DNA of 64,000 bases from Candidatus Binatia bacterium (lineage in GTDB: Bacteria; Desulfobacterota; Binatia; Bin18), in assembly GCA_963666315.2 (NCBI GenBank), contig CAXXHG010000043.1, forward strand, positions 672,001-736,000, written 5' to 3'. The notes under the pieces were generated by a model. That model saw nothing but the letters and a program-made list of their open reading frames with translations, did no database searches and had not been told where the DNA came from. Position 1 is the stretch's first letter. Each line of letters opens with the position of its first letter. The position numbers and the translations under genes are program-made. Shown here piece by piece: positions 6,467-20,781 of this stretch.

Positions 6467-7933
6467 ATGAGTGAGGAACAGAAGCCCTCGATCCGGAAAG
6501 AAGATGTCACCGAAGACGGTGGCGCCGAAGAGAACTTTGCTACACTCTTAGGACGCGAACAGACCGGGCCTGCACTGCACACTGGGCAGGTGGTCAAGGG
6601 ACGGGTCATTTTGATTAGTGTGGACAGCGTCTTTGTTGATGTTCGAAATAAAGGTGAGGGCATCATTGACCGCGCAGAACTGGAAAGTACGCAGGGAGAA
6701 CTCGAAGTCTCGGTGGGGGACGAAATCGAAGCGACCATAGTATCAACAGAAGGGGAACTTCGCCTGTCGCGGAAATTACTCAGCGGCGCTCGGGCGCAAG
6801 AGCGGTTGGAGCTGGCCGTAGACAATCAATTACCTGTTGAAGGCAAAGTGACAAATATTATCAAAGGGGGGTATGAAGTCACCGTTGCCGGATTTCGTGC
6901 CTTCTGTCCATTCTCACAGATGGATATGCGCCGACCCGAGTCGTCGGAGGCGTTTCTCGAACAGACGCTAGAGTTCTATGTAACCCGATACAGTGAGAAC
7001 GGACGCAATATCGTTTTGTCACGACGGCAACTGCTCGAAGAGCAGGCGGCCCAAGCGGCGAAAGAAACGCTGCGTACAATCGTACCCGACGCTGTCTTGC
7101 CTGGCACCGTAGCCTCGCTGACGAATTTCGGGGCGTTTATTGACCTGGGCGGGGTCCAGGGGCTGGTGCATGTTTCTGAAATATCTCACTCCCGGTTAGG
7201 AACGCCGGCTGACCGACTCAGTGTTGACGAGGCGGTAACGGTGAAGGTGCTCAAGATTGATGCGCAGACCGGCAAAATTGCGCTCAGTATGAAAGCCCTC
7301 GAAGGAGACCCGTGGGCAGCCGTTGCCGAGCAACTCCGTGAACGACAAGTCGTGAGTGGACGACTCGTCCGGATGGCAGACTTTGGCGCGTTCGTCGAAT
7401 TGCTCTCGGGTGTGGATGGCCTGCTGCATATCAGTGAGATTCCACGTAATCAGCATGGGCAGTTAAAGGAAGCGGTGACGACGCACGGGGAAGTAGCGGT
7501 CTTGATTCTGAGCATTGATCCCGACAAGCGACGCATCGCTCTGGCCCTGGCACCGGAAGGGTTGGTCCCCGGCGATCAAGCTGAGGCCCTGACTCTCACC
7601 CCAGGGGCGGTTGTGACCGGGACAGTCGAACGTATCGAATCGTTTGGCGTGTTTCTGCGTCTTGGCCCTGGGCAGACGGGCTTGATTCCCAATGCTGAGA
7701 TGGGCACCCCGCGCGGGACGGACCACCGTAAAGAATTTCCGCCTGAAACCGAAGTCAAAGTTACCGTGCTGGCAATTGAGGAGGGAGGAAAACGCATTCG
7801 GCTGTCCAGGACTAAGGCACATGCCCACGAAGAGCGGGCCGAAACACAAGCCTATTTGTCATCCACACAAAAACAACAAGGATTTGGACTGAATCTGGGA
7901 GAGTTACTCCAGCAGAGCAAGAAGAAGAAATGA
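6467..7933 (+). CDS. multi-S1-domain RNA-binding protein (ribosomal S1 paralog)
   Basis: About five S1 repeats (FGAFIDLGGVQGLVHVSEIS; FGAFVELLSGVDGLLHISEI); AAGGAG RBS before ATG 6467. Confidence 0.85.
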   Translation: MSEEQKPSIRKEDVTEDGGAEENFATLLGREQTGPALHTGQVVKGRVILISVDSVFVDVRNKGEGIIDRAELESTQGELEVSVGDEIEATIVSTEGELRLSRKLLSGARAQERLELAVDNQLPVEGKVTNIIKGGYEVTVAGFRAFCPFSQMDMRRPESSEAFLEQTLEFYVTRYSENGRNIVLSRRQLLEEQAAQAAKETLRTIVPDAVLPGTVASLTNFGAFIDLGGVQGLVHVSEISHSRLGTPADRLSVDEAVTVKVLKIDAQTGKIALSMKALEGDPWAAVAEQLRERQVVSGRLVRMADFGAFVELLSGVDGLLHISEIPRNQHGQLKEAVTTHGEVAVLILSIDPDKRRIALALAPEGLVPGDQAEALTLTPGAVVTGTVERIESFGVFLRLGPGQTGLIPNAEMGTPRGTDHRKEFPPETEVKVTVLAIEEGGKRIRLSRTKAHAHEERAETQAYLSSTQKQQGFGLNLGELLQQSKKKK

Positions 7934-7977
7934 TGAAGGATCGAAAGAAAGTCAGATGACCAGGAGCGGGAGAACAA

Positions 7978-8649
7978 TTACCCGCTCGCTGAGAGACTGG
8001 CCCGAAGCTGCCGTACGCCTGCACCTGGACCTCCTGGCGCACCGAATATAGCTGAGCCGGCCACAAGGAGTGAGGCCCCTGCGGCAACAACGTGTGGGGC
8101 GGTGGTAGAATCAATACCTCCGTCGACTTCAATTGCGGCATGCGCACCACGTTCATCAAGAAGATGGCGCAGACGACGCACCTTCTCTGTGCTGGAGGCA
8201 ATAAAGCGCTGCCCACCAAACCCAGGATTGACGCTCATGAGGAGGATCTGGTCAACCTCGTCGAGACTCTCTTCCAGCGTCGTCAGGGGAGTGCTGGGAT
8301 TGAGGACCACACCAGCCAGCTTGTCAAGCTGCTTGATTTGCTGAATAGTCCGGTGCAGATGGGGGCAGGTTTCTTGGTGCACGAGGATAATATCGGCTCC
8401 CGCATTAGCAAAATCGACTACATAGCGTTCGGGCTCGACAATCATCAGGTGGACGTCGAGAGGCAAGGTCGTGCTTTTGCGTGCGGCCTCGACGATAAGT
8501 GGGCCTATGCTGATGTTGGGGACAAAACGGCCGTCCATAACGTCTATATGGATACGATCCGCCCCAGCCTGTTCGACTTCGGCAATCTGTTGTCCGAGAC
8601 AGCGAAAGTCAGCAGACAGAATTGAGGGGAGAATTTGGGCTGTAGCCAT
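7978..8649 (-). CDS. rpe: ribulose-phosphate 3-epimerase
   Basis: [40 protein letters not shown]; likely start ATG 8649. Confidence 0.96.
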
Positions 8650-8680
8650 GATTTTCCTCAGCGCCTGCGCTCTTTTCTGC

Positions 8681-9919
8681 CTATCTCCTCCGATGGGGGT
8701 GGAATTCCACATCCCAGCACGCGAGGGTACCCGGCGCAATGGCCTGTGGCGTGCTGGGCGGTGTGAGTGGCAGGGCATAGATGTGAGGTGGTGCGCTTGG
8801 ATCTGATGCTGCTGTCTCAAGGAGATGGCCGGCGACGGCCAACGTGTTTCCATCAGGAGCCAGTAGTGGATGAGAGCAGGCATACTGATCAAAGAATGAA
8901 AACAGCAGGGCCTGCTCTCGGCTGGGAAGGAAACGGACGAGTTCTGTCGTTTCGCCAGTCGTCCGATCAAGTCTATGCCATCTGAGCTGGTTCTGCTGCA
9001 TGTCGACGCTCAGGTAAAACAGGTCGGCTCCGTGCGGAGACCAAAAGAACCCGGCTAGCGGGGTTTCGAGTAACGGGGTGATCTGTCCGGTTGAAAGATC
9101 AAGGAGGCGCAGGCTGGGGAACAGCAGAGAGCCCTGGTGGGCAGTACTGCCAAAGGCGAGCGTTTGCCCATCTGGTGACCACAGGGCTACCGTCATGCCG
9201 GCGGCGACACTTATCGGGGCACTCTCTCCGCTCCGGACGTCGAAGAGCCGCAGGGTCTCGGTTCCGTGTGCATCTCTTTCCACAAACGTGAGCAAATCGC
9301 CGCGTGGCGACCAGGCAGGAACGCGAAACGTTCCTGGCCGAGTAGAGAGCTCTCGCACGATCTGTCCAGTTGAGGCCTCAAGCAGGACAATGCGCGCTGG
9401 CACCGAGTTCTTCCGATCTTCTCCAACGTGGGCGGCCAAAAGCCCGCCCTGCGGAGACCAAGACCAAAACAGTGGCGCTCCACTGAGCAGTGGGGTGGTA
9501 TGGCCAGGTTGGGCTAGGATTATGGTTTCTAACGAGAGCTGCTTTTCTCCGCGTTGAACTAAGACGGTAAACACATCAGCCTGTGGAGACCAGTTGCCGT
9601 AGATGGGCATGCCATCCCCTAATCCTGCCCGCTCCCACGATTCTACCCCGTCTGCGGAAACCGTATACACACCAGCCTGGCCAGTCTCGCCGCGTACAGC
9701 AAAGCAGGCCAGCTGCCTCCCGTCCGGGGACCAGGTCGGCCAGGCATAGGTCAATTGCTGCGAGTCTGCGTTCGCGGGAACGTGGTCATTCCAACTCCAG
9801 GTGAGTTGACGACTCTGACCTGATGGGAAATGGCGGACAAAGATCTGACCGTCTAATCCGATATAAGCAAGTTGAGAAGAGGGAGAAGCGCTGGACTCCG
9901 ACCGGCTTTTCTCACTCAC
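8681..9919 (-). CDS. TolB-like PD40 beta-propeller protein
   Basis: Repeated WSPDG/WSPQG/WSPRG motifs; no obvious signal peptide. Confidence 0.75.
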
Positions 9920-11569: not shown

Positions 11570-11896
11570 TCAGTCTTCTCTCCGCGTCTCTCGCTGAATC
11601 CAGTCTAGATAATTCTGTGCCCCGGCCAGAATGGGTAGGGCGATAACCTCCGGCACCTCGTAGGAATGCAGCGTACGGACGCGTGTGGCTAACGCATCGA
11701 ATACATCCGCTTGTGTCTTGATCATCAGCAGCCATTCCCGATCATCGGCAATGCCGCCTTGCCAGCGGTAGAACGAACGGACCGGACTGATGATATTTAC
11801 GCATGCCGCTAGGCGCTCTTCGACGAGAGTTTTGGCAATGCTTTCGGCTTCGGCCTCGGAGCCGGCGGTAACGAAGACGACAATATGCTGTGTCAT
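11570..11896 (-). CDS. cutA: divalent-cation tolerance protein CutA
   Basis: LVEERLAACVN, SFYRWQG, LHSYEVPEVIALP. Confidence 0.93.
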   Translation of the reverse strand: MTQHIVVFVTAGSEAEAESIAKTLVEERLAACVNIISPVRSFYRWQGGIADDREWLLMIKTQADVFDALATRVRTLHSYEVPEVIALPILAGAQNYLDWIQRETRRED

Positions 11897-11931
11897 GCAA
11901 TATGCTGCGTTATGCAATATGCTGCGTCATG
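11881..11931. repeat. 3 x 17-bp tandem repeat across the glutaredoxin stop / cutA start
   Basis: CAATATGCTGTGTCATG-CAATATGCTGCGTTATG-CAATATGCTGCGTCATG. Confidence 0.9.
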
Positions 11932-12208
11932 AATGAGTCTCGCGCTCTGTTCCAGCGCGATTCAGACGCTCGCGGCTCAGACGCCGGCGCAGTTCACCGG
12001 ATGTCACCCGATATTTAAACGCTTTACGGCCATTGACAAAAAGCACCGGGATTTCCTGGCCAAAGCGGGCTTCTAGTTCTGCCTGTGCTGAGATGTCGAT
12101 TTCTTCAAGGTCAAAAGGCAAGTCGGACTCGACTTCAGCCAGAACGGCTTTCATGTCTTCACACAGGCAGCAGCCCGACCGAGAATATAACGTCAGCGGG
12201 ACGGCCAT
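11927..12208 (-). CDS. glutaredoxin-like protein (DUF836 type)
   Basis: LYSRSGCCLCEDM, EIPVLFVNG. Confidence 0.85.
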   Translation of the reverse strand: MAVPLTLYSRSGCCLCEDMKAVLAEVESDLPFDLEEIDISAQAELEARFGQEIPVLFVNGRKAFKYRVTSGELRRRLSRERLNRAGTERETHS

Positions 12209-13554
12209 GACGGCTCTTCGGGAGTGACTGAGGTTGGCGAAGGTTGCACCTCAGCAAGTTTTTCTATTTTCACTTGGGCAACATGATGGTTGTCGGTTTT
12301 AAGGATCGTCATGCGAACAGTATCGTATTCAAATGTCTCGTCAACTTCCGGAATGTGGCCGAGCCACTTATTAATGAGTCCGCTGACGCTGGTGTAATCA
12401 CTGCCCTCGGGAAGCTCGAATGCAGCAATACGATCATTGACATCTGCAACTGACAGTGAAGCATTCACAACATACGTATGCTCGTCCACCTGATGAATAT
12501 CGTCCGGCTCGATGTCGTATTCATCCTGGATTTCGCCGACCAGCTCCTCCAAGATGTCTTCCATCGTAACCAGGCCGGCTGTACTGCCAAATTCATCAAC
12601 AACAATCGCAATATGGACCTTGCGGTGCTGGAACTCACGCAGCAAGTCATCGATAGGTTTCGTTTCGGGCACATAATACACAGATCGTAGCAGGTCGCGC
12701 AGGATAATCAGGTCACGATGTTCCATCAGGGTAAGCAGATCCTTGGCATGTACGATGCCGAGGATGGTGTCGAGTGAGCCCTCATACACCGGCACGCGGC
12801 TATACCCGCCTTCGACCAAGAGCTTCACCAAGTCATTCGACGGTGCGGTCACGTCCATGGCTGCGATATGTGTTCGTGGAACCATGATTTCCCGAACCAC
12901 CGTCTCACCAAACTCAAAGACATTCTCGATGAGTTCGTGCTCCTCCTCTTCTATGGTGCCGCCTGCACGGCCCTGCTCAAGAAGAAATCGGAGTTCTTCT
13001 CCAGAGTGGTAGTGAGCAGACTCGCCTGCAGGCTCAACGCCAAAGAGACGCAGCACCTGGTTAGCGGCCCAGTTCAGGACACTAATGACTGGGGAAAAAA
13101 TGAGAGCAAAAAACCAGAGCGGATAGGCAATGGCCAGCGTTGTGGACTGGGGATGTTGAATCGCCAGCGATTTTGGTGCGAGTTCGCCAAAGACAATATG
13201 CAGAAATATGATAAAGAGAAAGGCAATAGGCAGTGCGATCTGGTGTGCCAGCTCGGGGTCAACTGCAAACCCAGCCAAGTGCATTGCCTCGATGATAAGT
13301 TTGGCCACAACCGGCTCCCCAATCCATCCCAACCCAAGCGAGGCCAGCGTAATCCCGAGCTGGGTCGCGGACAGGTAGGCATCCAGGTGGGAAATGAGAT
13401 GCTGGCCCAGCTTGGCCGTTCGGCTGCCAGTTTGAACGAGCAGTTCGATTTGAGAGGCGCGGACTTTCACGATCGCGAACTCTGCCGCGACAAAAAATGC
13501 GTTGGCTAGGACTAACAAGAGTGCGATCAATAGGCCGAGGGTCGGACTCTCCAT
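12193..13554 (-). CDS. HlyC/CorC (CNNM-CBS-CorC) hemolysin-family transporter
   Basis: FFVAAEFAIV, QLGITLASLGLGWIGEP, GELAPKS, CBS pair (YSRVPVY, VVDEFG..EDILEELVGEIQDEYD). Confidence 0.93.
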   Translation of the reverse strand: MESPTLGLLIALLLVLANAFFVAAEFAIVKVRASQIELLVQTGSRTAKLGQHLISHLDAYLSATQLGITLASLGLGWIGEPVVAKLIIEAMHLAGFAVDPELAHQIALPIAFLFIIFLHIVFGELAPKSLAIQHPQSTTLAIAYPLWFFALIFSPVISVLNWAANQVLRLFGVEPAGESAHYHSGEELRFLLEQGRAGGTIEEEEHELIENVFEFGETVVREIMVPRTHIAAMDVTAPSNDLVKLLVEGGYSRVPVYEGSLDTILGIVHAKDLLTLMEHRDLIILRDLLRSVYYVPETKPIDDLLREFQHRKVHIAIVVDEFGSTAGLVTMEDILEELVGEIQDEYDIEPDDIHQVDEHTYVVNASLSVADVNDRIAAFELPEGSDYTSVSGLINKWLGHIPEVDETFEYDTVRMTILKTDNHHVAQVKIEKLAEVQPSPTSVTPEEPSWPSR

Positions 13555-13695: not shown

Positions 13696-15753
13696 TCACC
13701 CTGCGCCCTCGTTTTCCGTGAGAAATAGATGGATAGCCTCGACTGAGAGGGGCGTCCAATGCTCGGCCAGCGCAACAGCCGCTTGAACGGCTGTCCGTTC
13801 ACTCGCACCAATCACCTCACGGGTGACGGCATACTGCCGGGTGTGGACCTGGAGCCGAATACTGTTGCCGTTTTCCGTCCAAGCTGATTGTTGGAGAAGA
13901 ATGGGAGCCATGGGTAAAGAGACAATGACGTCATGTAGGAGCGGATCATCGCCATCAACGAGAAAATGGCACCGAGAGCCCACAGTCTGACACAGGACCT
14001 GCATTTCGTCCTGGAGTGTCCGCAGCAGGTCAACGTCGGTACTATAGCTGGGGGTCAGAGTGGTCAGAATAGCAATATCCGGCACAACGGTCCGCAAGAG
14101 CTGGCGCATATCTCCCTGACTCCGCGTACCAAATTCGAGCACGAGTACCTCGACCGCATCTTGACTCAAGAATGCAGTCCACACGGCCTGGCAAAAGGCC
14201 CGGATCAGGCTCCCCCAGCGCAATGATCCTAATTCGATGTTCAGCACGGCGAGGGGCAAGCCTATCTCGGTATTATAGGAGCGTGGGTTGGTTTGGACGT
14301 GGTAACGCATGGCCAGCAACTCGGCCACTATGCGTTTCACCACAGTCTTGCCGTGACTGCCGGCAATTGCGATGACACGCGGCTTTTTACGCCACACAAA
14401 GACGCGCGCTAGCGCTTGGAGAGCAAGGATAGCGCATCGTCGCAACCGGTGCCGCGCAAAGGGATGAGAGGCGATAAGAGGAGCTGGAGACTGACGGTCG
14501 GGCGCTGAACCGTGGACAGCGGTGTGAGCTGTGTGGACGCGATCCGAGTGAGGCTGCGTGGTGGCTGGGGAACAAAAATAGTCTTCCAGACGTGCAAAGG
14601 CGGTTTCAATATCATTCGCTTCGCGGCCAAAGTTGAAGCGCAGATGGGCCTCTCCGCTTGGACCAAACGCAATACCCGGAACAAGGGCAACTTTTGCTTT
14701 CTCGAGAATATCGCGCGCGAGCGTGTGTGAATTCCGTGCGCCGGCCACAGTGTCTTTGACACGTGGAAAAACAAAATACGCGCCTTCCGGTTTCTGGTAG
14801 TCAAACACGTGGGACAGCCGGTCGAGATGGGTCAGAGTCAGATCTCGGCGGGCCTTAAATGCCTGTCGAAATGCCATGAGGTGCTCGTGACCGTCTTCCA
14901 GCGCCGCCAGCGCGGCGTACTGCGAGACAACGGGCGCACACGTCACCAATGCGTCATGCACTTTAAGGATTTCTTGGACATTGCGTACCGCGGAATGCAG
15001 ATAGCCCACGCGCCAGCCGGTCATGGCGTACGCTTTTGAGAAGGTGAAGATGCGGACAACGCGGTTCCGTACGTCTGCGATCTGGGCCGGACTAAAATAT
15101 GCCTCTTTGGTGAAAACAAAATCTTTGTACGCCTCATCACTAATGAGGAGGAGGTCGTGCCGTTCGGCTAAGGCAACAAGTGCGCGGGTTTCCGCCTGCG
15201 AGAACACGGTGCCGGTGGGATTGTTCGGATTACAGTACAGGATGGCTCGGGTGCGCGTGGACAGACACCGTTCGAACGCCTCTTCGTCAAACGCAAAATT
15301 GTGTTCTTCCAGCAAAGGGGCGAACCGCGGGGTACAGCCTGCCATGCGGACGACCTCTTGATAGGAGGCATAACTCGGAGACGGAAGAATCACCTCATCC
15401 CCCGGTTGTGTCAGAGTGAGCAGCGTTGCAGCGATGGCCTGGATAGACCCGCAGGAGATAATGATTTCCTGGTCCGGGTCGTAGTGCATGCCTTCGCGTA
15501 GGAGAGACTCTGCAACGCATTCACGCAGTTGCGGCAGGCCCGGAGTGAGCGAATATGTGGCGCACGCGCCTTCTGCAATTTTTTGTTGCACAAAAGCCTT
15601 AATCGGCTCAGGTGTGTCAAAGCTCGGGATGCCTTGGGCTAGAGAAACTACGCCGGGAATCCGACTGGCTGCCAGCTCGATCTCTTTAATCGGGGAAAGT
15701 TTGACCTCGGCAGTCCGAACAAAGTGTCGATTTTCTCCCTTTCTGCGGTCCAC
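13696..15753 (-). CDS. class I/II PLP aminotransferase fused to a MurF-like ATP-binding (Mur ligase middle) domain
   Basis: N-terminal ~390 aa: CNPNNPTG, SDEAY, TFSKAYAMTGWRVG. C-terminal: VIAIAGSHGKT, YNTEIGLPLAVL, VLVLEFG, PDIAILT. Confidence 0.85.
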   Translation of the reverse strand: MDRRKGENRHFVRTAEVKLSPIKEIELAASRIPGVVSLAQGIPSFDTPEPIKAFVQQKIAEGACATYSLTPGLPQLRECVAESLLREGMHYDPDQEIIISCGSIQAIAATLLTLTQPGDEVILPSPSYASYQEVVRMAGCTPRFAPLLEEHNFAFDEEAFERCLSTRTRAILYCNPNNPTGTVFSQAETRALVALAERHDLLLISDEAYKDFVFTKEAYFSPAQIADVRNRVVRIFTFSKAYAMTGWRVGYLHSAVRNVQEILKVHDALVTCAPVVSQYAALAALEDGHEHLMAFRQAFKARRDLTLTHLDRLSHVFDYQKPEGAYFVFPRVKDTVAGARNSHTLARDILEKAKVALVPGIAFGPSGEAHLRFNFGREANDIETAFARLEDYFCSPATTQPHSDRVHTAHTAVHGSAPDRQSPAPLIASHPFARHRLRRCAILALQALARVFVWRKKPRVIAIAGSHGKTVVKRIVAELLAMRYHVQTNPRSYNTEIGLPLAVLNIELGSLRWGSLIRAFCQAVWTAFLSQDAVEVLVLEFGTRSQGDMRQLLRTVVPDIAILTTLTPSYSTDVDLLRTLQDEMQVLCQTVGSRCHFLVDGDDPLLHDVIVSLPMAPILLQQSAWTENGNSIRLQVHTRQYAVTREVIGASERTAVQAAVALAEHWTPLSVEAIHLFLTENEGAG

Positions 15754-15896
15754 AGTGCGTCAATCTCCTTTTGTCATTGGTGGGATGGGTGGGACGTACG
15801 GGTGAGATGTACGGTACCCAGGACCCTATGGCTTTGCAATGTGGTAGGCAGTTGGGATATATCCCGGACAAGAACTACAAGCATAAGGAGGGCCGC

Positions 15897-16580
15897 ATGA
15901 GCGAACGTTTTTTTTCTGAAGAGGAAATTCGCCAAATGGAAAAACGCACGGTTGATCGATTGACCGAAGCCATAGAAGCCGGTGACACAGAAAAGGCGAA
16001 AAAGATTGCCCAACGTATGTATAACGAATTTCTCAGCATGCACGACCTGTACCGCAACTGGACCACTGCCACTTTGAGCGAGGTTGGGCGTCGTTTTGGT
16101 GATGAGGTACTTGAAGAGATCATGGCCGAAGGAGTCAAAGCCTGGTGGCTGCCTAGTCTGGAGAAGATGCCCTCAGAGCCTGAAGCCTTGCCAAAGAAGA
16201 TCAAAATGTTCATTGCCGGGTTGCACGGCCATCTACAACCCATGAATATTGAAGAAGATGATGAAAAGGTCGTTATTCAGATGCGTCCGTGTGGGAGTGG
16301 CGGACGGCTTGTCCTGGAAGGAAAGTACGAAGGTCCGAATGCGTTTCATACTGTGGAGAAACCGCAGCGTATGACCTATGGCCGGGAAAATTTCCCAGTT
16401 TATTGTGCGCATGAACCATCCATGGAGCTGGTGGATATTGAAAAGAACGGCAAGCCGTTTGTGGTGGTTGAACCGGCCGCCGTGCTTGGAAAAGAACACT
16501 GCTCATTTATTATTTATAAAGACCCGGACAAAGTCCCGAAAAAATATTACGAACGCCTGGGCCTCAAGAAGCCGGAATAG
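15897..16580 (+). CDS. conserved hypothetical protein, possibly V4R-like metal-binding
   Basis: AAGGAGG RBS; PCGSGG, YCAH, HCSF. Confidence 0.65.
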   Translation: MSERFFSEEEIRQMEKRTVDRLTEAIEAGDTEKAKKIAQRMYNEFLSMHDLYRNWTTATLSEVGRRFGDEVLEEIMAEGVKAWWLPSLEKMPSEPEALPKKIKMFIAGLHGHLQPMNIEEDDEKVVIQMRPCGSGGRLVLEGKYEGPNAFHTVEKPQRMTYGRENFPVYCAHEPSMELVDIEKNGKPFVVVEPAAVLGKEHCSFIIYKDPDKVPKKYYERLGLKKPE

Positions 16581-16609: not shown

Positions 16610-17815
16610 ATGCTAGCGGCTGGAGTCGGCTTATCGAAACAGCAGGACACGGAACTGGCCACGCGCGAAGCCGTACACACTGCCCTCAGCCGAGCGGGGA
16701 GTGATACGGCCGATTTTGTCGTAGTCTTTGCGACTGCGCATCATGGCGCAGCCTACGGTCGTCTGCTGCGAACCGTGCGAGAGATGACGCAAGCAGATCA
16801 CGTTGTTGGCTGTAGTGCCGGCGGGGTGCTCACGTCAGACGGCGAAGTCGAGCGCTCTCCAGGTGTGGCTGTTTTGACCGTGCGCTCGGATACGCTGTCG
16901 GCTCAACGTTTCTTCGTGCCCCGGCTTCGCGGCCGTGCGGATGCACTCGGCCAAGAGATCGTCTCCAGCATGAAGCCGCACCTGGGCCAGGAGAATCTGA
17001 CCGTAGTCTTTCCAGATACCTATAATTTTGACTCTCGTGCCTTCTTCCAAGGCATAGCGCAAGGAATAGCAGAGGCCGGCTTGCCGGATGTTCCCTTTGT
17101 GGGTGGCGGAGCGTCAGAAGACGGCAGCCTGGGCGAGACCTTCCAGTTGTGTGGGGAGACGGTCGGCAATGACGCGGTGAGCGGCGTTCTGCTCACCGGC
17201 CATTTTATCCATACGATTAGTGTCACCCAGGCATGCCAGCCCATTAGCCCCATCTATACCGTTACCAAAGCGCATGGAAATCTTCTTTTGGAGCTGGACG
17301 GAAAGCCGGCTTTTGAAGTCTTCTCTAATGCGGTCAGCGCGCCGTTGCGGGAAGATTTGCAGCGTGCCGCCGCGTTTATCTTTGTCGGCTTGCCCGTTGA
17401 TGCTGAACGCCAGCATATTGCGCCGGGCGAATATATCGTTCGCAATATTACGGGTTTTGATCCGGAACGCGGCATTGTTGCGGTGGGTGACGAGATTGTC
17501 GAGGGTCAGAAATTGATCTTCACCCTCCGTGACGGTAATGGCGCACGGACAGATCTCAAACGCACCCTGGAAGAACAGGCTCAAAACTGGCAGGCCGGCA
17601 GGCCGGCATTCGGCCTGTATTTCAATTGCGTGGGCCGGGGGAGTGGTCTGTACGGCATTCCCGATATCGACACCTCATATCTGAGCCAATATCTGGAATC
17701 TGTGCCGATTGTCGGGTTTTTTACCGGTTGTGAGATCGCTCCCATTCAGCACCAGGCATGGGTGCACCAGTATTCCGGGGTACTGGTCCTGGTTGGGGAA
17801 AAGAATCTACACTGA
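16610..17815 (+). CDS. FIST N/C domain sensory protein
   Basis: VVGCSAGGVL, VGGGAS, TQACQPI, LELDGKPA, YFNCVGRG, GFFTGCEIAP. Confidence 0.9.
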   Translation: MLAAGVGLSKQQDTELATREAVHTALSRAGSDTADFVVVFATAHHGAAYGRLLRTVREMTQADHVVGCSAGGVLTSDGEVERSPGVAVLTVRSDTLSAQRFFVPRLRGRADALGQEIVSSMKPHLGQENLTVVFPDTYNFDSRAFFQGIAQGIAEAGLPDVPFVGGGASEDGSLGETFQLCGETVGNDAVSGVLLTGHFIHTISVTQACQPISPIYTVTKAHGNLLLELDGKPAFEVFSNAVSAPLREDLQRAAAFIFVGLPVDAERQHIAPGEYIVRNITGFDPERGIVAVGDEIVEGQKLIFTLRDGNGARTDLKRTLEEQAQNWQAGRPAFGLYFNCVGRGSGLYGIPDIDTSYLSQYLESVPIVGFFTGCEIAPIQHQAWVHQYSGVLVLVGEKNLH

Positions 17816-19354: not shown

Positions 19355-20781
19355 CTGAGGGATCCCCACGAATCACACCAAAAAAGCGTCTAAAAACAAG
19401 AGGATAAAAAAATCGATCCCTCCAGGGGACCGGTCCGGTGCGTCTCGATCTGCTCTAATGCGGAGCAAAATCAGGATCAGAGGAGACCGCACCGTGCCAG
19501 CTTAACACGTCTTACGCACATTGCTCAACGACACCTGTTCCACCATGCATCAAGCCCGGCGGCGGGCCCTTGAGGTGACTGTGCTGGCCGCCTTGTCCGG
19601 GGCACGCTTGACGGTGACGGCTTTAGGCCGCTCCATCGCGAGCCGGGCGAAACAGAAGCATTGCATTAAACGAGCGGACCGCTTGTTATCGAACACGCAC
19701 CTCCACCGGGAACGTGGCGCCATTTATGCGGAGCTGGTTCGCCGGCTTATCGGCAGGTGCCACCGCCCCATCATCCTGGTGGATTGGTCGGACCTGGGTA
19801 ACTGCAAGCGCCATTTTTTACTGCGCGCTGCCGTAGCGGTGAAAGGGCGGTCGGTCACCTTGTATGAGAAAGTGCATACGATCCAGACCAAAGAAAAACC
19901 CAAGAGCCATCGCCATTTTCTGCAGACACTGAAGGGGATGTTAGCGGCGGATTGCTCCCCCCTCATCGTTTCCGACGCCGGCTTTCGCGTCCCCTGGTTT
20001 AAGTTAGTCGAGTCGTTGGGCTGGGATTGGCTCGGGCGCGTCAGGAACCGGACGTTTGTACAATTAGCGGAGGAGGAGCCCTGGTTTCCCTGTAAAGCCC
20101 TGTACCTCCTGGCCACCAAAACACCCCAAGCCCTGGGGCAAGCTTGCATGGCCCAGAGCAACCCCCTGGCCTGCCACCTCGTGCTGTACAACGCCCCGTC
20201 CCAAGGACGCGTGCATAAGAATCGCCTCGGGCACAAAGCGCGGAATGCCCGCAGTCGACGATACGCCGTCTCAACCACAGAACCGTGGCTCTTAGCCACC
20301 TCGCTCCCGCCATGTTCTCACTTCGCCAAGCAGGTTGTTGCGTGGTATGCCTTGCGCATGCAAATCGAAGAAGCTTTCCGCGATCTCAAGAGCACGCGCT
20401 TTGGGTTGTCATTGGAACACCATCTGACCCAGCACGTCGAACGTTTACAAGTCCTGTTGTTGATTGCGCTGTTGGCCTTGATGGTGGCTTGGCTGATGGG
20501 GAAAGCGACGGAATTAACAGGCCAACAGTGGCAATATCAAGCCAACACCGTGAGGCGGCGGACAGTCCTCTCGACGATTTTTATTGGCTTCATCGTGAGT
20601 GCCGATAGACGGACCACACTCACTGCACAGGACCTCACCGGCGCGTGGGAATCGTTGCTGGAGAGTAGTCAGTCCCATTGTCTGTGCCCGCTGATCGAGG
20701 CGGCGGCGACCACTCGCAACAGGGCCGCGTGAACCCCCATGAACTTCCTCGAAATTACTCCTATTCGTGGGGATCCCTCAG
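19355..20781 (+). mobile_element. IS4-family (IS10-like) insertion sequence, 1427 bp
   Basis: Perfect 19-bp IRs CTGAGGGATCCCCACGAAT; 9-bp flanks GGTCAGACT / GGTCAGACC. Confidence 0.95.
19494..20732 (+). pseudogene. IS4 transposase, probably with TAA at codon 4
   Basis: DDE motifs VDWSD, SDAGF, YALRMQIEEAFRDLK. AGGAG RBS + GTG 19494, then TAA 19503-19505 in frame with the long ORF. Confidence 0.75.

Follow-up and report, generated by a model that had tools for sequence, protein, structure and literature searches.

An aminotransferase-fold enzyme paired with a diverged MurF core in Candidatus Binatia and Patescibacteria: a candidate for D-alanine supply in bacteria without alanine racemase

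The 64,000-nucleotide stretch of Candidatus Binatia DNA analyzed here (the window; contig CAXXHG010000043.1, positions 672,001 to 736,000) encodes on its minus strand, at positions 13696..15753, a protein of 685 residues in which a pyridoxal 5'-phosphate (PLP) enzyme of the class-I aminotransferase fold is followed by a diverged core of the peptidoglycan ligase MurF, termed MurF' in the following. Aminotransferase and MurF' form an obligate two-part module, and it is new here that this module tracks the absence of the alanine racemase Alr. Peptidoglycan cannot be made without D-alanine; Alr is regarded as the near-universal source of it and serves as a drug target. Among the genomes sampled, entire Binatia families and the majority of module-bearing Patescibacteria encode Ddl and/or MurF and have no recognizable Alr, and the module is a concrete candidate for the D-alanine source in such Alr-less bacteria.

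The open reading frame starts with a GTG at position 15753 and ends with a TGA stop codon at 13696-13698, and its length and architecture are the same in relatives. The Pfam family Aminotran_1_2 (PF00155) matches residues 35-389 (14587..15651, on the minus strand as all features of the gene) with 216.9 bits against a cut-off of 19.7 and an E-value of 6e-64, covering profile positions 3-361 of 361. Mur_ligase_M (PF08245) is recognized from residue 463 onward with 31.4 bits against a cut-off of 24, and the Pfam scan of the 685-residue protein did not find Mur_ligase_C (PF02875). The two halves are connected by a weakly conserved linker of variable length (residues 395-430; 14464..14571), which is marked by alignment gaps and is predicted to be disordered, with a predicted local distance difference test (pLDDT) score <50 at residues 400-430. 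MurF' spans residues 431-681 (13711..14463) and corresponds to the MurF central domain alone, as judged by an AlphaFold (AF2) model, by Foldseek and by the match to residues 84-226 of MurF 2am1. The first-pass annotation had described a single reading frame of 685 residues carrying the motifs SKAYAMTGWR (with K240), GSHGKT (465-470), YNTEIGLP (493-500) and LVLEFG (537-542); all of them are present, the strand being the minus strand, and its view of an intact class-I PLP enzyme joined to a Mur P-loop domain without C-terminal domain agrees with the Pfam assignments, the alignments and the conservation. The full-length AF2 model has a pLDDT of 83.6 and a predicted template modeling score (pTM) of 0.84, which hints at a fixed arrangement of the PLP and MurF' halves in the predicted structure. 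Predicting the complex of aminotransferase residues 9-400 with MurF' residues 431-685 as separate chains gave run scores of 0.40, 0.20 and 0.01, i.e., a median of 0.20 at a mark of 0.32, which weighs neither for nor against an interface.

The fusion is real and widespread; chance cannot account for an open frame that is retained across hundreds of relatives. A search with residues 430-685 against a collection of 5.8 billion proteins (E <= 0.001) resulted in 1562 clusters; among the best 120 of these, 115 are 655-740 residues long and 119 carry PF00155. Their source names state just "aminotransferase," and the matches in the ESM Atlas are solely clusters of 245-279 residues named "Mur ligase middle domain-containing protein"; the current annotation of the module does not go beyond these two names. 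The first-pass annotation knew of no characterized example, and this holds, as the literature searched for the architecture contains no description of it. The phosphonate paper PMC8942020, which surfaced in this search, is unrelated to the architecture as far as its accessible part goes. A second set comprises 63 shorter fused forms of 590-648 residues with labels including Oligoflexia, Bdellovibrionota and Dadabacteria, and forms of at least 1200 residues containing the MurF' region were not found at E <= 0.001, which is weak evidence. A scan with one genome per species yielded 54 loci, mainly from Candidatus Binatia, with a few labeled SAR324, Lambdaproteobacteria, Methylomirabilota and Thermodesulfobacteriota. 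At 46 of the 54 loci the MurF' match lies inside a frame of at least 600 residues, and the eight exceptions are accounted for by contig ends (five), by a split form in Patescibacteria (two) and by one locus (L037) that is neither.

Within the class of the window genome, 94 of 301 genomes (a tally that includes one unpublished genome, G474) carry the fusion, 86 of them in stop-free frames of at least 600 codons and many in single-contig assemblies. It is found in 44/48 genomes of the window's own family (f1), in 8/8 of f100, 3/3 of f3 and 5/5 of f111, and furthermore in 16/24 of f106, 10/17 of f104 and 5/25 of f4; it is absent from the sampled members of f5 (0/49), f6 (0/25), f107 (0/21), f103 (0/19) and f2 (0/13). 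In five fusion-free members of the class no stand-alone orthologue of the aminotransferase was found, their aminotransferases being merely 30-33% identical. The reading that in the window genome loss of a stop codon or misassembly has joined two genes could point to a broken or chimeric relative (L032) and to a few genomes with frameshifted copies (G385). However, the frame is uninterrupted in the 86 of 94 class carriers and in the 115 of the 120 best database relatives mentioned above, and this conservation already refutes an artifact, which we regard as practically dismissed. The relative L032 (2-2677, labeled Bacillota) is 65% identical to the fusion up to residue ~560 and then continues in frame into an unrelated flavin-dependent oxidoreductase (DAO), suggesting a rearrangement or a chimeric assembly. 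In G385 (C1:826056-826783) two frames together cover the MurF' part of the fusion.

The pairing is strict also where the two parts are encoded separately. At two loci labeled Patescibacteria, an aminotransferase of 402-404 residues and a protein of 202-259 residues containing only Mur_ligase_M are encoded by separate genes overlapping by a few bases, and both genomes carry a MurF of 424 residues elsewhere. In a sample of 301 genomes of the phylum, ordinary MurF proteins of 400-470 residues make up most matches to the core; the sample includes the unpublished genome G746, on which no conclusion depends. The aminotransferase lies directly upstream at 5/5 loci of the short form vs. 0/25 loci of full-length MurF, and aminotransferase orthologues of at least 53% identity occur in this sample only in the five genomes with a stand-alone MurF core. 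Similarly, a class sample of 301 genomes contains the orthologue in 18, with the core directly downstream in 17 of these. Seryl-tRNA synthetase is encoded upstream at 14/17 split loci, and directly 3' of the core, considering 18 loci, FtsQ/POTRA proteins are encoded at nine (a tenth is indicated by a weak tblastn match alone) and Ddl at two. The split forms share with the fused ones the NPRSYNTEIGLPL loop, the L-E-x-G strand and the loss of a histidine and a lysine discussed below; their P-loop is often degenerate (e.g., G-T-N-S-R-Y or G-x-x-N-K-T). Two-gene relatives, which the first-pass annotation would have taken as a sign of a fusion by lost stop if unlinked, thus do exist; they are adjacent or overlapping and strictly co-occurring, and therefore they support a functional unit and do not refute it. 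As side observations, the sole locus with an aminotransferase orthologue and no MurF core downstream (L108; G1116:C1) has a gene of the FemAB family (peptidoglycan bridge) directly upstream, and at G605:C62 (L064/L094) the match to the Patescibacteria aminotransferase is interrupted by stops or a frameshift.

The PLP half is, as judged from its sequence, a catalytically intact class-I (fold-type-I) PLP enzyme of unassigned specificity. It aligns end to end with the aromatic/aspartate aminotransferases 1dju and 1gd9 of Pyrococcus horikoshii (E ~1e-63), with the aspartate aminotransferase (AspAT) of Thermus and with a plant prephenate aminotransferase. S239 and the PLP-binding lysine K240 (codon at 15034..15036), which aligns to the lysine motif of 1dju, are invariant in 44 full-length relatives, as are N177/N178, D206, Y209, R248 and R372, which we take from the AspAT literature to act in binding of the cofactor and the carboxylate. 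Across these relatives the conservation of the PLP half is far above that of the C-terminal half. Among the best 25 NCBIfam matches of the PLP half no equivalog cut-off is reached, the scores and cut-offs being 307/415 for GntC as the best match, 284/575 for aminotransferase A and 193/593 for DapL. The window genome contains 18 matches to PF00155, 17 besides the fusion.

The C-terminal half derives from MurF. Residues 440-685 have sequence matches to MurF alone, e.g., to residues 84-226 of Streptococcus pneumoniae MurF (2am1), and an AF2 model of MurF' built on 40 relatives (pLDDT 91.6) retrieves only MurF among its 11 best Foldseek matches in the PDB (E 4e-10 to 6e-8; query template modeling score ~0.70). 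Compared to E. coli MurF, it begins at the helix leading into the P-loop and ends at the boundary of the central and C-terminal domains; the N-terminal MurF domain is replaced by the aminotransferase, and the three-domain architecture of MurF is not found. A helix of ~20 residues after the N-x-x-I-G-x-P loop is common to MurF' and to a type of MurF of ~420-440 residues that lacks the N-terminal domain, and it is found neither in E. coli MurF nor in the window genome's own MurF; MurF' therefore descends from the ~420-440-residue type. Such MurF proteins in Patescibacteria (P0151, P0158, P0165, P0166; G592:C7, G593:C8) have ~420-440 residues in two domains, Mur_ligase_M and Mur_ligase_C, no N-terminal domain and the extra helix after the N-x-x-I-G-x-P loop.

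The sites of MurF' were checked in 64 rows, i.e., the 63 shorter fused forms and the window's domain. Lysine and threonine of the P-loop G465-S-H-G-K-T470 (14344..14361) are invariant in 64/64 rows, and the lysine is found in 39/40 sequences of alignment A2. E540 (14134..14136), the equivalent of the Mg-binding glutamate E158 of E. coli MurF, is likewise invariant (64/64), and the loop N489-PRSYNTEIGLP-L501 (14251..14289), of which the asparagine is kept in 63/64 and the glycine in 64/64 rows, is the most conserved motif across fused and split forms. By contrast, residues of the ligase reaction are lost. The histidine H188 and the lysine K202 of E. coli MurF, which we take to be second-metal ligands, K202 being presumably the number of the carbamylated lysine, are replaced in the window protein by Y570 (14044..14046) and M584 (14002..14004); the respective positions hold His in 0/64 and Lys in 0/64 rows, and the H281 position is mostly Ser. 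The corresponding lysine of Mur ligases is reported to be carbamylated and needed for catalysis, according to the accessible part of PMC9434261 (citing Dementin, 2001). The same part of this source lists residues NTT158 of MurE as binding uridine diphosphate-N-acetylmuramic acid (UDP-MurNAc), and the conserved NTEIG loop of MurF' falls in the same loop. Since the histidine and lysine needed by Mur ligases are lost, peptide ligation by MurF' appears unlikely from the sequence. MurF' would rather be a ligase-dead core still resembling a nucleotide- and ligand-binding domain, and the invariance of K, T and E540 together with the loss of H188 and K202 suggests selection as a binding domain and not as a ligase. 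The earlier idea that the PLP product might be channeled to a peptide ligation is thereby poorly supported, as His and Lys never occupy the H188 and K202 positions and the amino-acid-binding domain is absent. The window genome has its own canonical MurF (above the TIGR01143 cut-off), MurE, MurD and MurC. This MurF (G000:C7, L117:5554-6972, minus strand) has a glutamate at the position of K202. The proposal that E583 of the fusion is a glutamate replacing the carbamylated lysine was dropped, as K202 aligns to M584 and E583 is also Glu in the Patescibacteria-type MurF.

The ddl/ftsQ context in Patescibacteria prompted a tally of Alr. In the window genome, which is 92% complete, Ddl and MurF are present and Ala_racemase_C (PF00842) has no match; its two matches to Ala_racemase_N (PF01168) are YggS and a BhcC-like fragment. 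Moreover, PF00842 was found in none of 18 sampled relatives of family f1, several of which are single-contig assemblies. A class sample of 151 genomes, including the unpublished and fusion-free G378 (Alr present), contains Alr in 116. Counting a weak fusion match in G342 as fusion-free and a partial Alr match in G304 as present, 32 of the 46 fusion-bearing genomes lack Alr and 14 have it, whereas only 3 of the 105 fusion-free genomes lack Alr and 102 have it; of the 35 Alr-less genomes, 32 carry the fusion. These 32 comprise 18/18 genomes of f1, 6/8 of f100, 3/3 of f3, 4/5 of f104 and one genome of f4. Within f104, Alr is present in the three fusion-free genomes, missing from four fusion-bearing ones and found beside the fusion in one. 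In Patescibacteria, Alr is found in 1/20 module-bearing genomes (0/5 in the phylum sample, 1/15 in further carriers) vs. 108/296 other genomes of the phylum sample, and PF01168 is absent in 5/5 carriers searched. A class IV aminotransferase is absent in 4/5 module-bearing Patescibacteria searched, which argues against a cycle of two transaminases in these small carriers. The anticorrelation of module and Alr is a strong lead, not proof. A class IV aminotransferase encoded near murF in the window genome (contig C7) was considered as a D-amino-acid transaminase and rejected, as it is IlvE.

A functional precedent is given by the MurF'-Alr chimera of Phocaeicola dorei, described in BMC Microbiology in 2026, in which the sole alr of the genome is joined to a diverged and incomplete MurF-like region and in which, according to the accessible part of the paper, removal of MurF' increases Km and decreases kcat/Km (PMC13726279). 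A bifunctional MurF/alanine racemase is also represented among the NCBIfam models (NF008897). Our preferred interpretation, held tentatively and with somewhat less than even confidence, is that the PLP enzyme of the module belongs to the supply line for D-alanine and is tuned by a MurF core that has lost its ligase function. For substrate, type of chemistry, MurF' ligand and modulatory effect we infer the following. The module would serve to provide alanine/D-alanine to the D-Ala-D-Ala branch of peptidoglycan synthesis in lineages without canonical Alr, the PLP domain acting on alanine/pyruvate by racemization, by stereo-inverting transamination or as the L-specific arm of a transaminase pathway. 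MurF' would ligate nothing and act as a bound modulator or sensor that tunes the PLP domain; its P-loop would still hold a nucleotide, and its conserved NTEIG loop would probably hold a UDP-MurNAc-peptide-like ligand. The suggestion of the first-pass annotation that the enzyme is regulated by ATP or UDP-MurNAc-peptide remains plausible and is strengthened by the MurF'-Alr precedent and the link to the D-alanine branch.

In a stronger and rather doubtful form, the aminotransferase-fold domain itself would be the missing D-alanine-forming enzyme of Alr-less bacteria, i.e., of several Binatia families and some Patescibacteria, either as a fold-type-I racemase or as a stereo-inverting transaminase producing D-alanine from pyruvate, and the MurF' core would sense ATP and UDP-MurNAc-tripeptide so that the output of D-alanine follows the demand for D-Ala-D-Ala. 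Fold-type-I enzymes with racemase side activities exist, as does a stereo-inverting D-phenylglycine aminotransferase.

Several observations weigh against a role in D-alanine supply. The PLP domain resembles an ordinary transaminase, with aromatic and aspartate aminotransferases as best matches, and a dedicated alanine racemase with the class-I aminotransferase fold is not known to us. Some split forms of Patescibacteria have a degenerate P-loop, so nucleotide binding cannot be essential family-wide. No peptidoglycan genes are found among 100 neighbors at 25 loci of Binatia and allies; the fusion of Binatia is flanked by a CNNM transporter or threonine dehydratase gene and by a gene for a FIST protein. 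Fusion and Alr occur together in the 14 of 46 class carriers (f106, f111 and genus g216, plus G304, G337 and G415), so the module is not simply a replacement of Alr, and fused-form genomes of other labeled lineages comprise three without and two with Alr (n = 5). The Alr tally in Patescibacteria derives from small genomes of no stated completeness. Related genomes are moreover not independent, and the anticorrelation may rest on few evolutionary events. Finally, the other four class IV genes of the window genome comprise two branched-chain aminotransferases and two (C39, C21) that stay below every cut-off, and the latter could be D-amino-acid transaminases supplying D-alanine instead.

These points bear on the rival explanations. 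An ordinary amino-acid transaminase with a nucleotide-sensing domain recycled from MurF, acting in general metabolism unrelated to D-alanine and the cell wall, is unlikely in our view. It would fit the aromatic and aspartate aminotransferases as closest relatives in structure and sequence, the lack of a reached NCBIfam equivalog cut-off, the conservation of P-loop and E540 in the fused forms and the metabolic and transport genes around the Binatia fusion, with threonine dehydratase next to it at six loci; with 18 PF00155 matches in the window genome it might be one more paralogue. However, it leaves unexplained why a MurF core was chosen that keeps the MurF-type NTEIG loop, why the pair has a ddl/ftsQ context in Patescibacteria and why the fusion is present in 32 of the class's 35 Alr-less genomes.

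The other two rivals differ in what MurF' does, and both appear improbable. MurF' could use ATP to activate a carboxylate as acyl-phosphate or for ligation of whatever the PLP domain produces, as the P-loop GxxGKT, the Mg-binding glutamate and the substrate loop are conserved and Mur-like proteins are known to work with nitrogen-donor partners, MurT/GatD being among the fold matches. Against such a bifunctional enzyme speak the H188 and K202 positions, which are never His or Lys in the 64 rows, the serine at H281, the absence of the C-terminal domain, to which the incoming amino acid binds in Mur ligases, and the replacement of the P-loop lysine in some split forms. Alternatively, MurF' might be a docking piece without ligand sensing that tethers the PLP enzyme to Mur ligases or the divisome or stabilizes an oligomer. 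The surface loop NPRSYNTEIGLPL is invariant also in the several split forms that have a degenerate P-loop, structural relics of Mur ligases exist, with a plastid RNA polymerase subunit among the fold matches, and the pTM of the two-domain chain would suit such a role; a pure scaffold, however, would have no need for a P-loop lysine and threonine that are invariant in 64/64 rows.

Upstream of the gene, a Shine-Dalgarno-like hexamer AAGGAG, read from the sequence, is located at 15765..15770 of the minus strand, 11 nt before the GTG, and a scan for promoters and terminators gave nothing above the shuffled expectation. The synteny around the fusion is clade-limited, with an unknown protein of ~230 residues and a FIST protein upstream and either CNNM-Grx-CutA-Smr or threonine dehydratase downstream. 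In the window, a protein of 269 residues without Pfam or NCBIfam match is encoded divergently from the fusion at 15771-16577 (plus strand), followed by a FIST_N+FIST_C protein at 16610-17812 (plus strand), and most close Binatia loci likewise have a ~230-residue protein of unknown family paired with a FIST protein upstream of the fusion. On its downstream side, positions 11573-13554 (minus strand, as the fusion) encode a CNNM/CBS/CorC_HlyC transporter, a glutaredoxin-like DUF836 protein and CutA1, with a Smr-domain gene next in relatives. In one subclade of Binatia (L004, L007, L010, L015, L016 and L018; ~7713-8730) a short gene of the PALP fold, encoding ~320-330 residues, lies directly 3' of the fusion; it overlaps the end of the fusion at 4/6 loci, and the scanned copies (L007, L010 and L018) are above the cut-off for the threonine dehydratase PRK06110. 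Farther away in the window, the translation of an open reading frame of 403 residues (19521-20732, plus strand) looks transposase-like by eye.

If the proposed role is true, the module and the chimera of 2026 would together show repeated recruitment of diverged MurF cores to tune PLP enzymes that serve the D-Ala branch. Should the link to D-alanine fail, a widespread obligate pair of an enzyme and a pseudo-enzyme remains, represented by more than 1500 database clusters.

Compared to known systems, MurF' has in common with MurF the fold, the P-loop, the Mg-binding glutamate and the N-x-x-I-G-x-P loop; it differs by the absence of the N-terminal and C-terminal domains, by the replacement of the equivalents of H188, K202 and H281 and by a KR in place of the KE following the P-loop. 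The lipid II amidotransferase MurT/GatD similarly combines a Mur-ligase-like protein with a nitrogen-handling partner (fold match 6gs2), but MurT has retained the ligase chemistry and a C-terminal domain and works with a glutaminase, not with a PLP enzyme. With the class Ib aminotransferases (1dju, 1gd9 and the Thermus AspAT 1bjw) the PLP half aligns over the full length with E-values of 1e-54 to 1e-63, sharing the PLP lysine, the Asn, Asp and Tyr of the cofactor site and the carboxylate-binding Arg; unlike these enzymes it belongs to a tight orthologous group of its own (44 relatives, 44-93% identical), is always paired with MurF' and stays below every NCBIfam equivalog cut-off. The Patescibacteria pair has an orthologous aminotransferase (~50% identity) and a homologous core that has likewise lost His and Lys and shares the insert, whereas it is encoded by two genes that are adjacent or overlap by a few bases and its P-loop is often degenerate with the GxHN motif retained; the window protein is a single polypeptide with an intact P-loop and GxS.

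The closest parallel is the chimera of P. dorei. As far as the accessible part of its description goes, both proteins combine a diverged, incomplete MurF region with a PLP enzyme, in genomes with a separate normal MurF and no other alr. However, the PLP domain of the P. dorei enzyme is a fold-type-III alanine racemase and its MurF' is N-terminal and comprises ~457 residues, whereas the PLP domain of the window protein is a fold-type-I class-I aminotransferase (PF00155) and its MurF' is C-terminal and consists of the central domain alone. Modulation of the PLP domain by MurF' is documented for the P. dorei enzyme by kinetics in the same part of that source, while for the window protein it is a proposal. 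Judged by its domains, PF00155 instead of PF01168 and PF00842, the window protein is an analogue and not a member of the MurF'-Alr family: it represents the same kind of pairing, a MurF-like region plus a PLP enzyme, with a different PLP fold.

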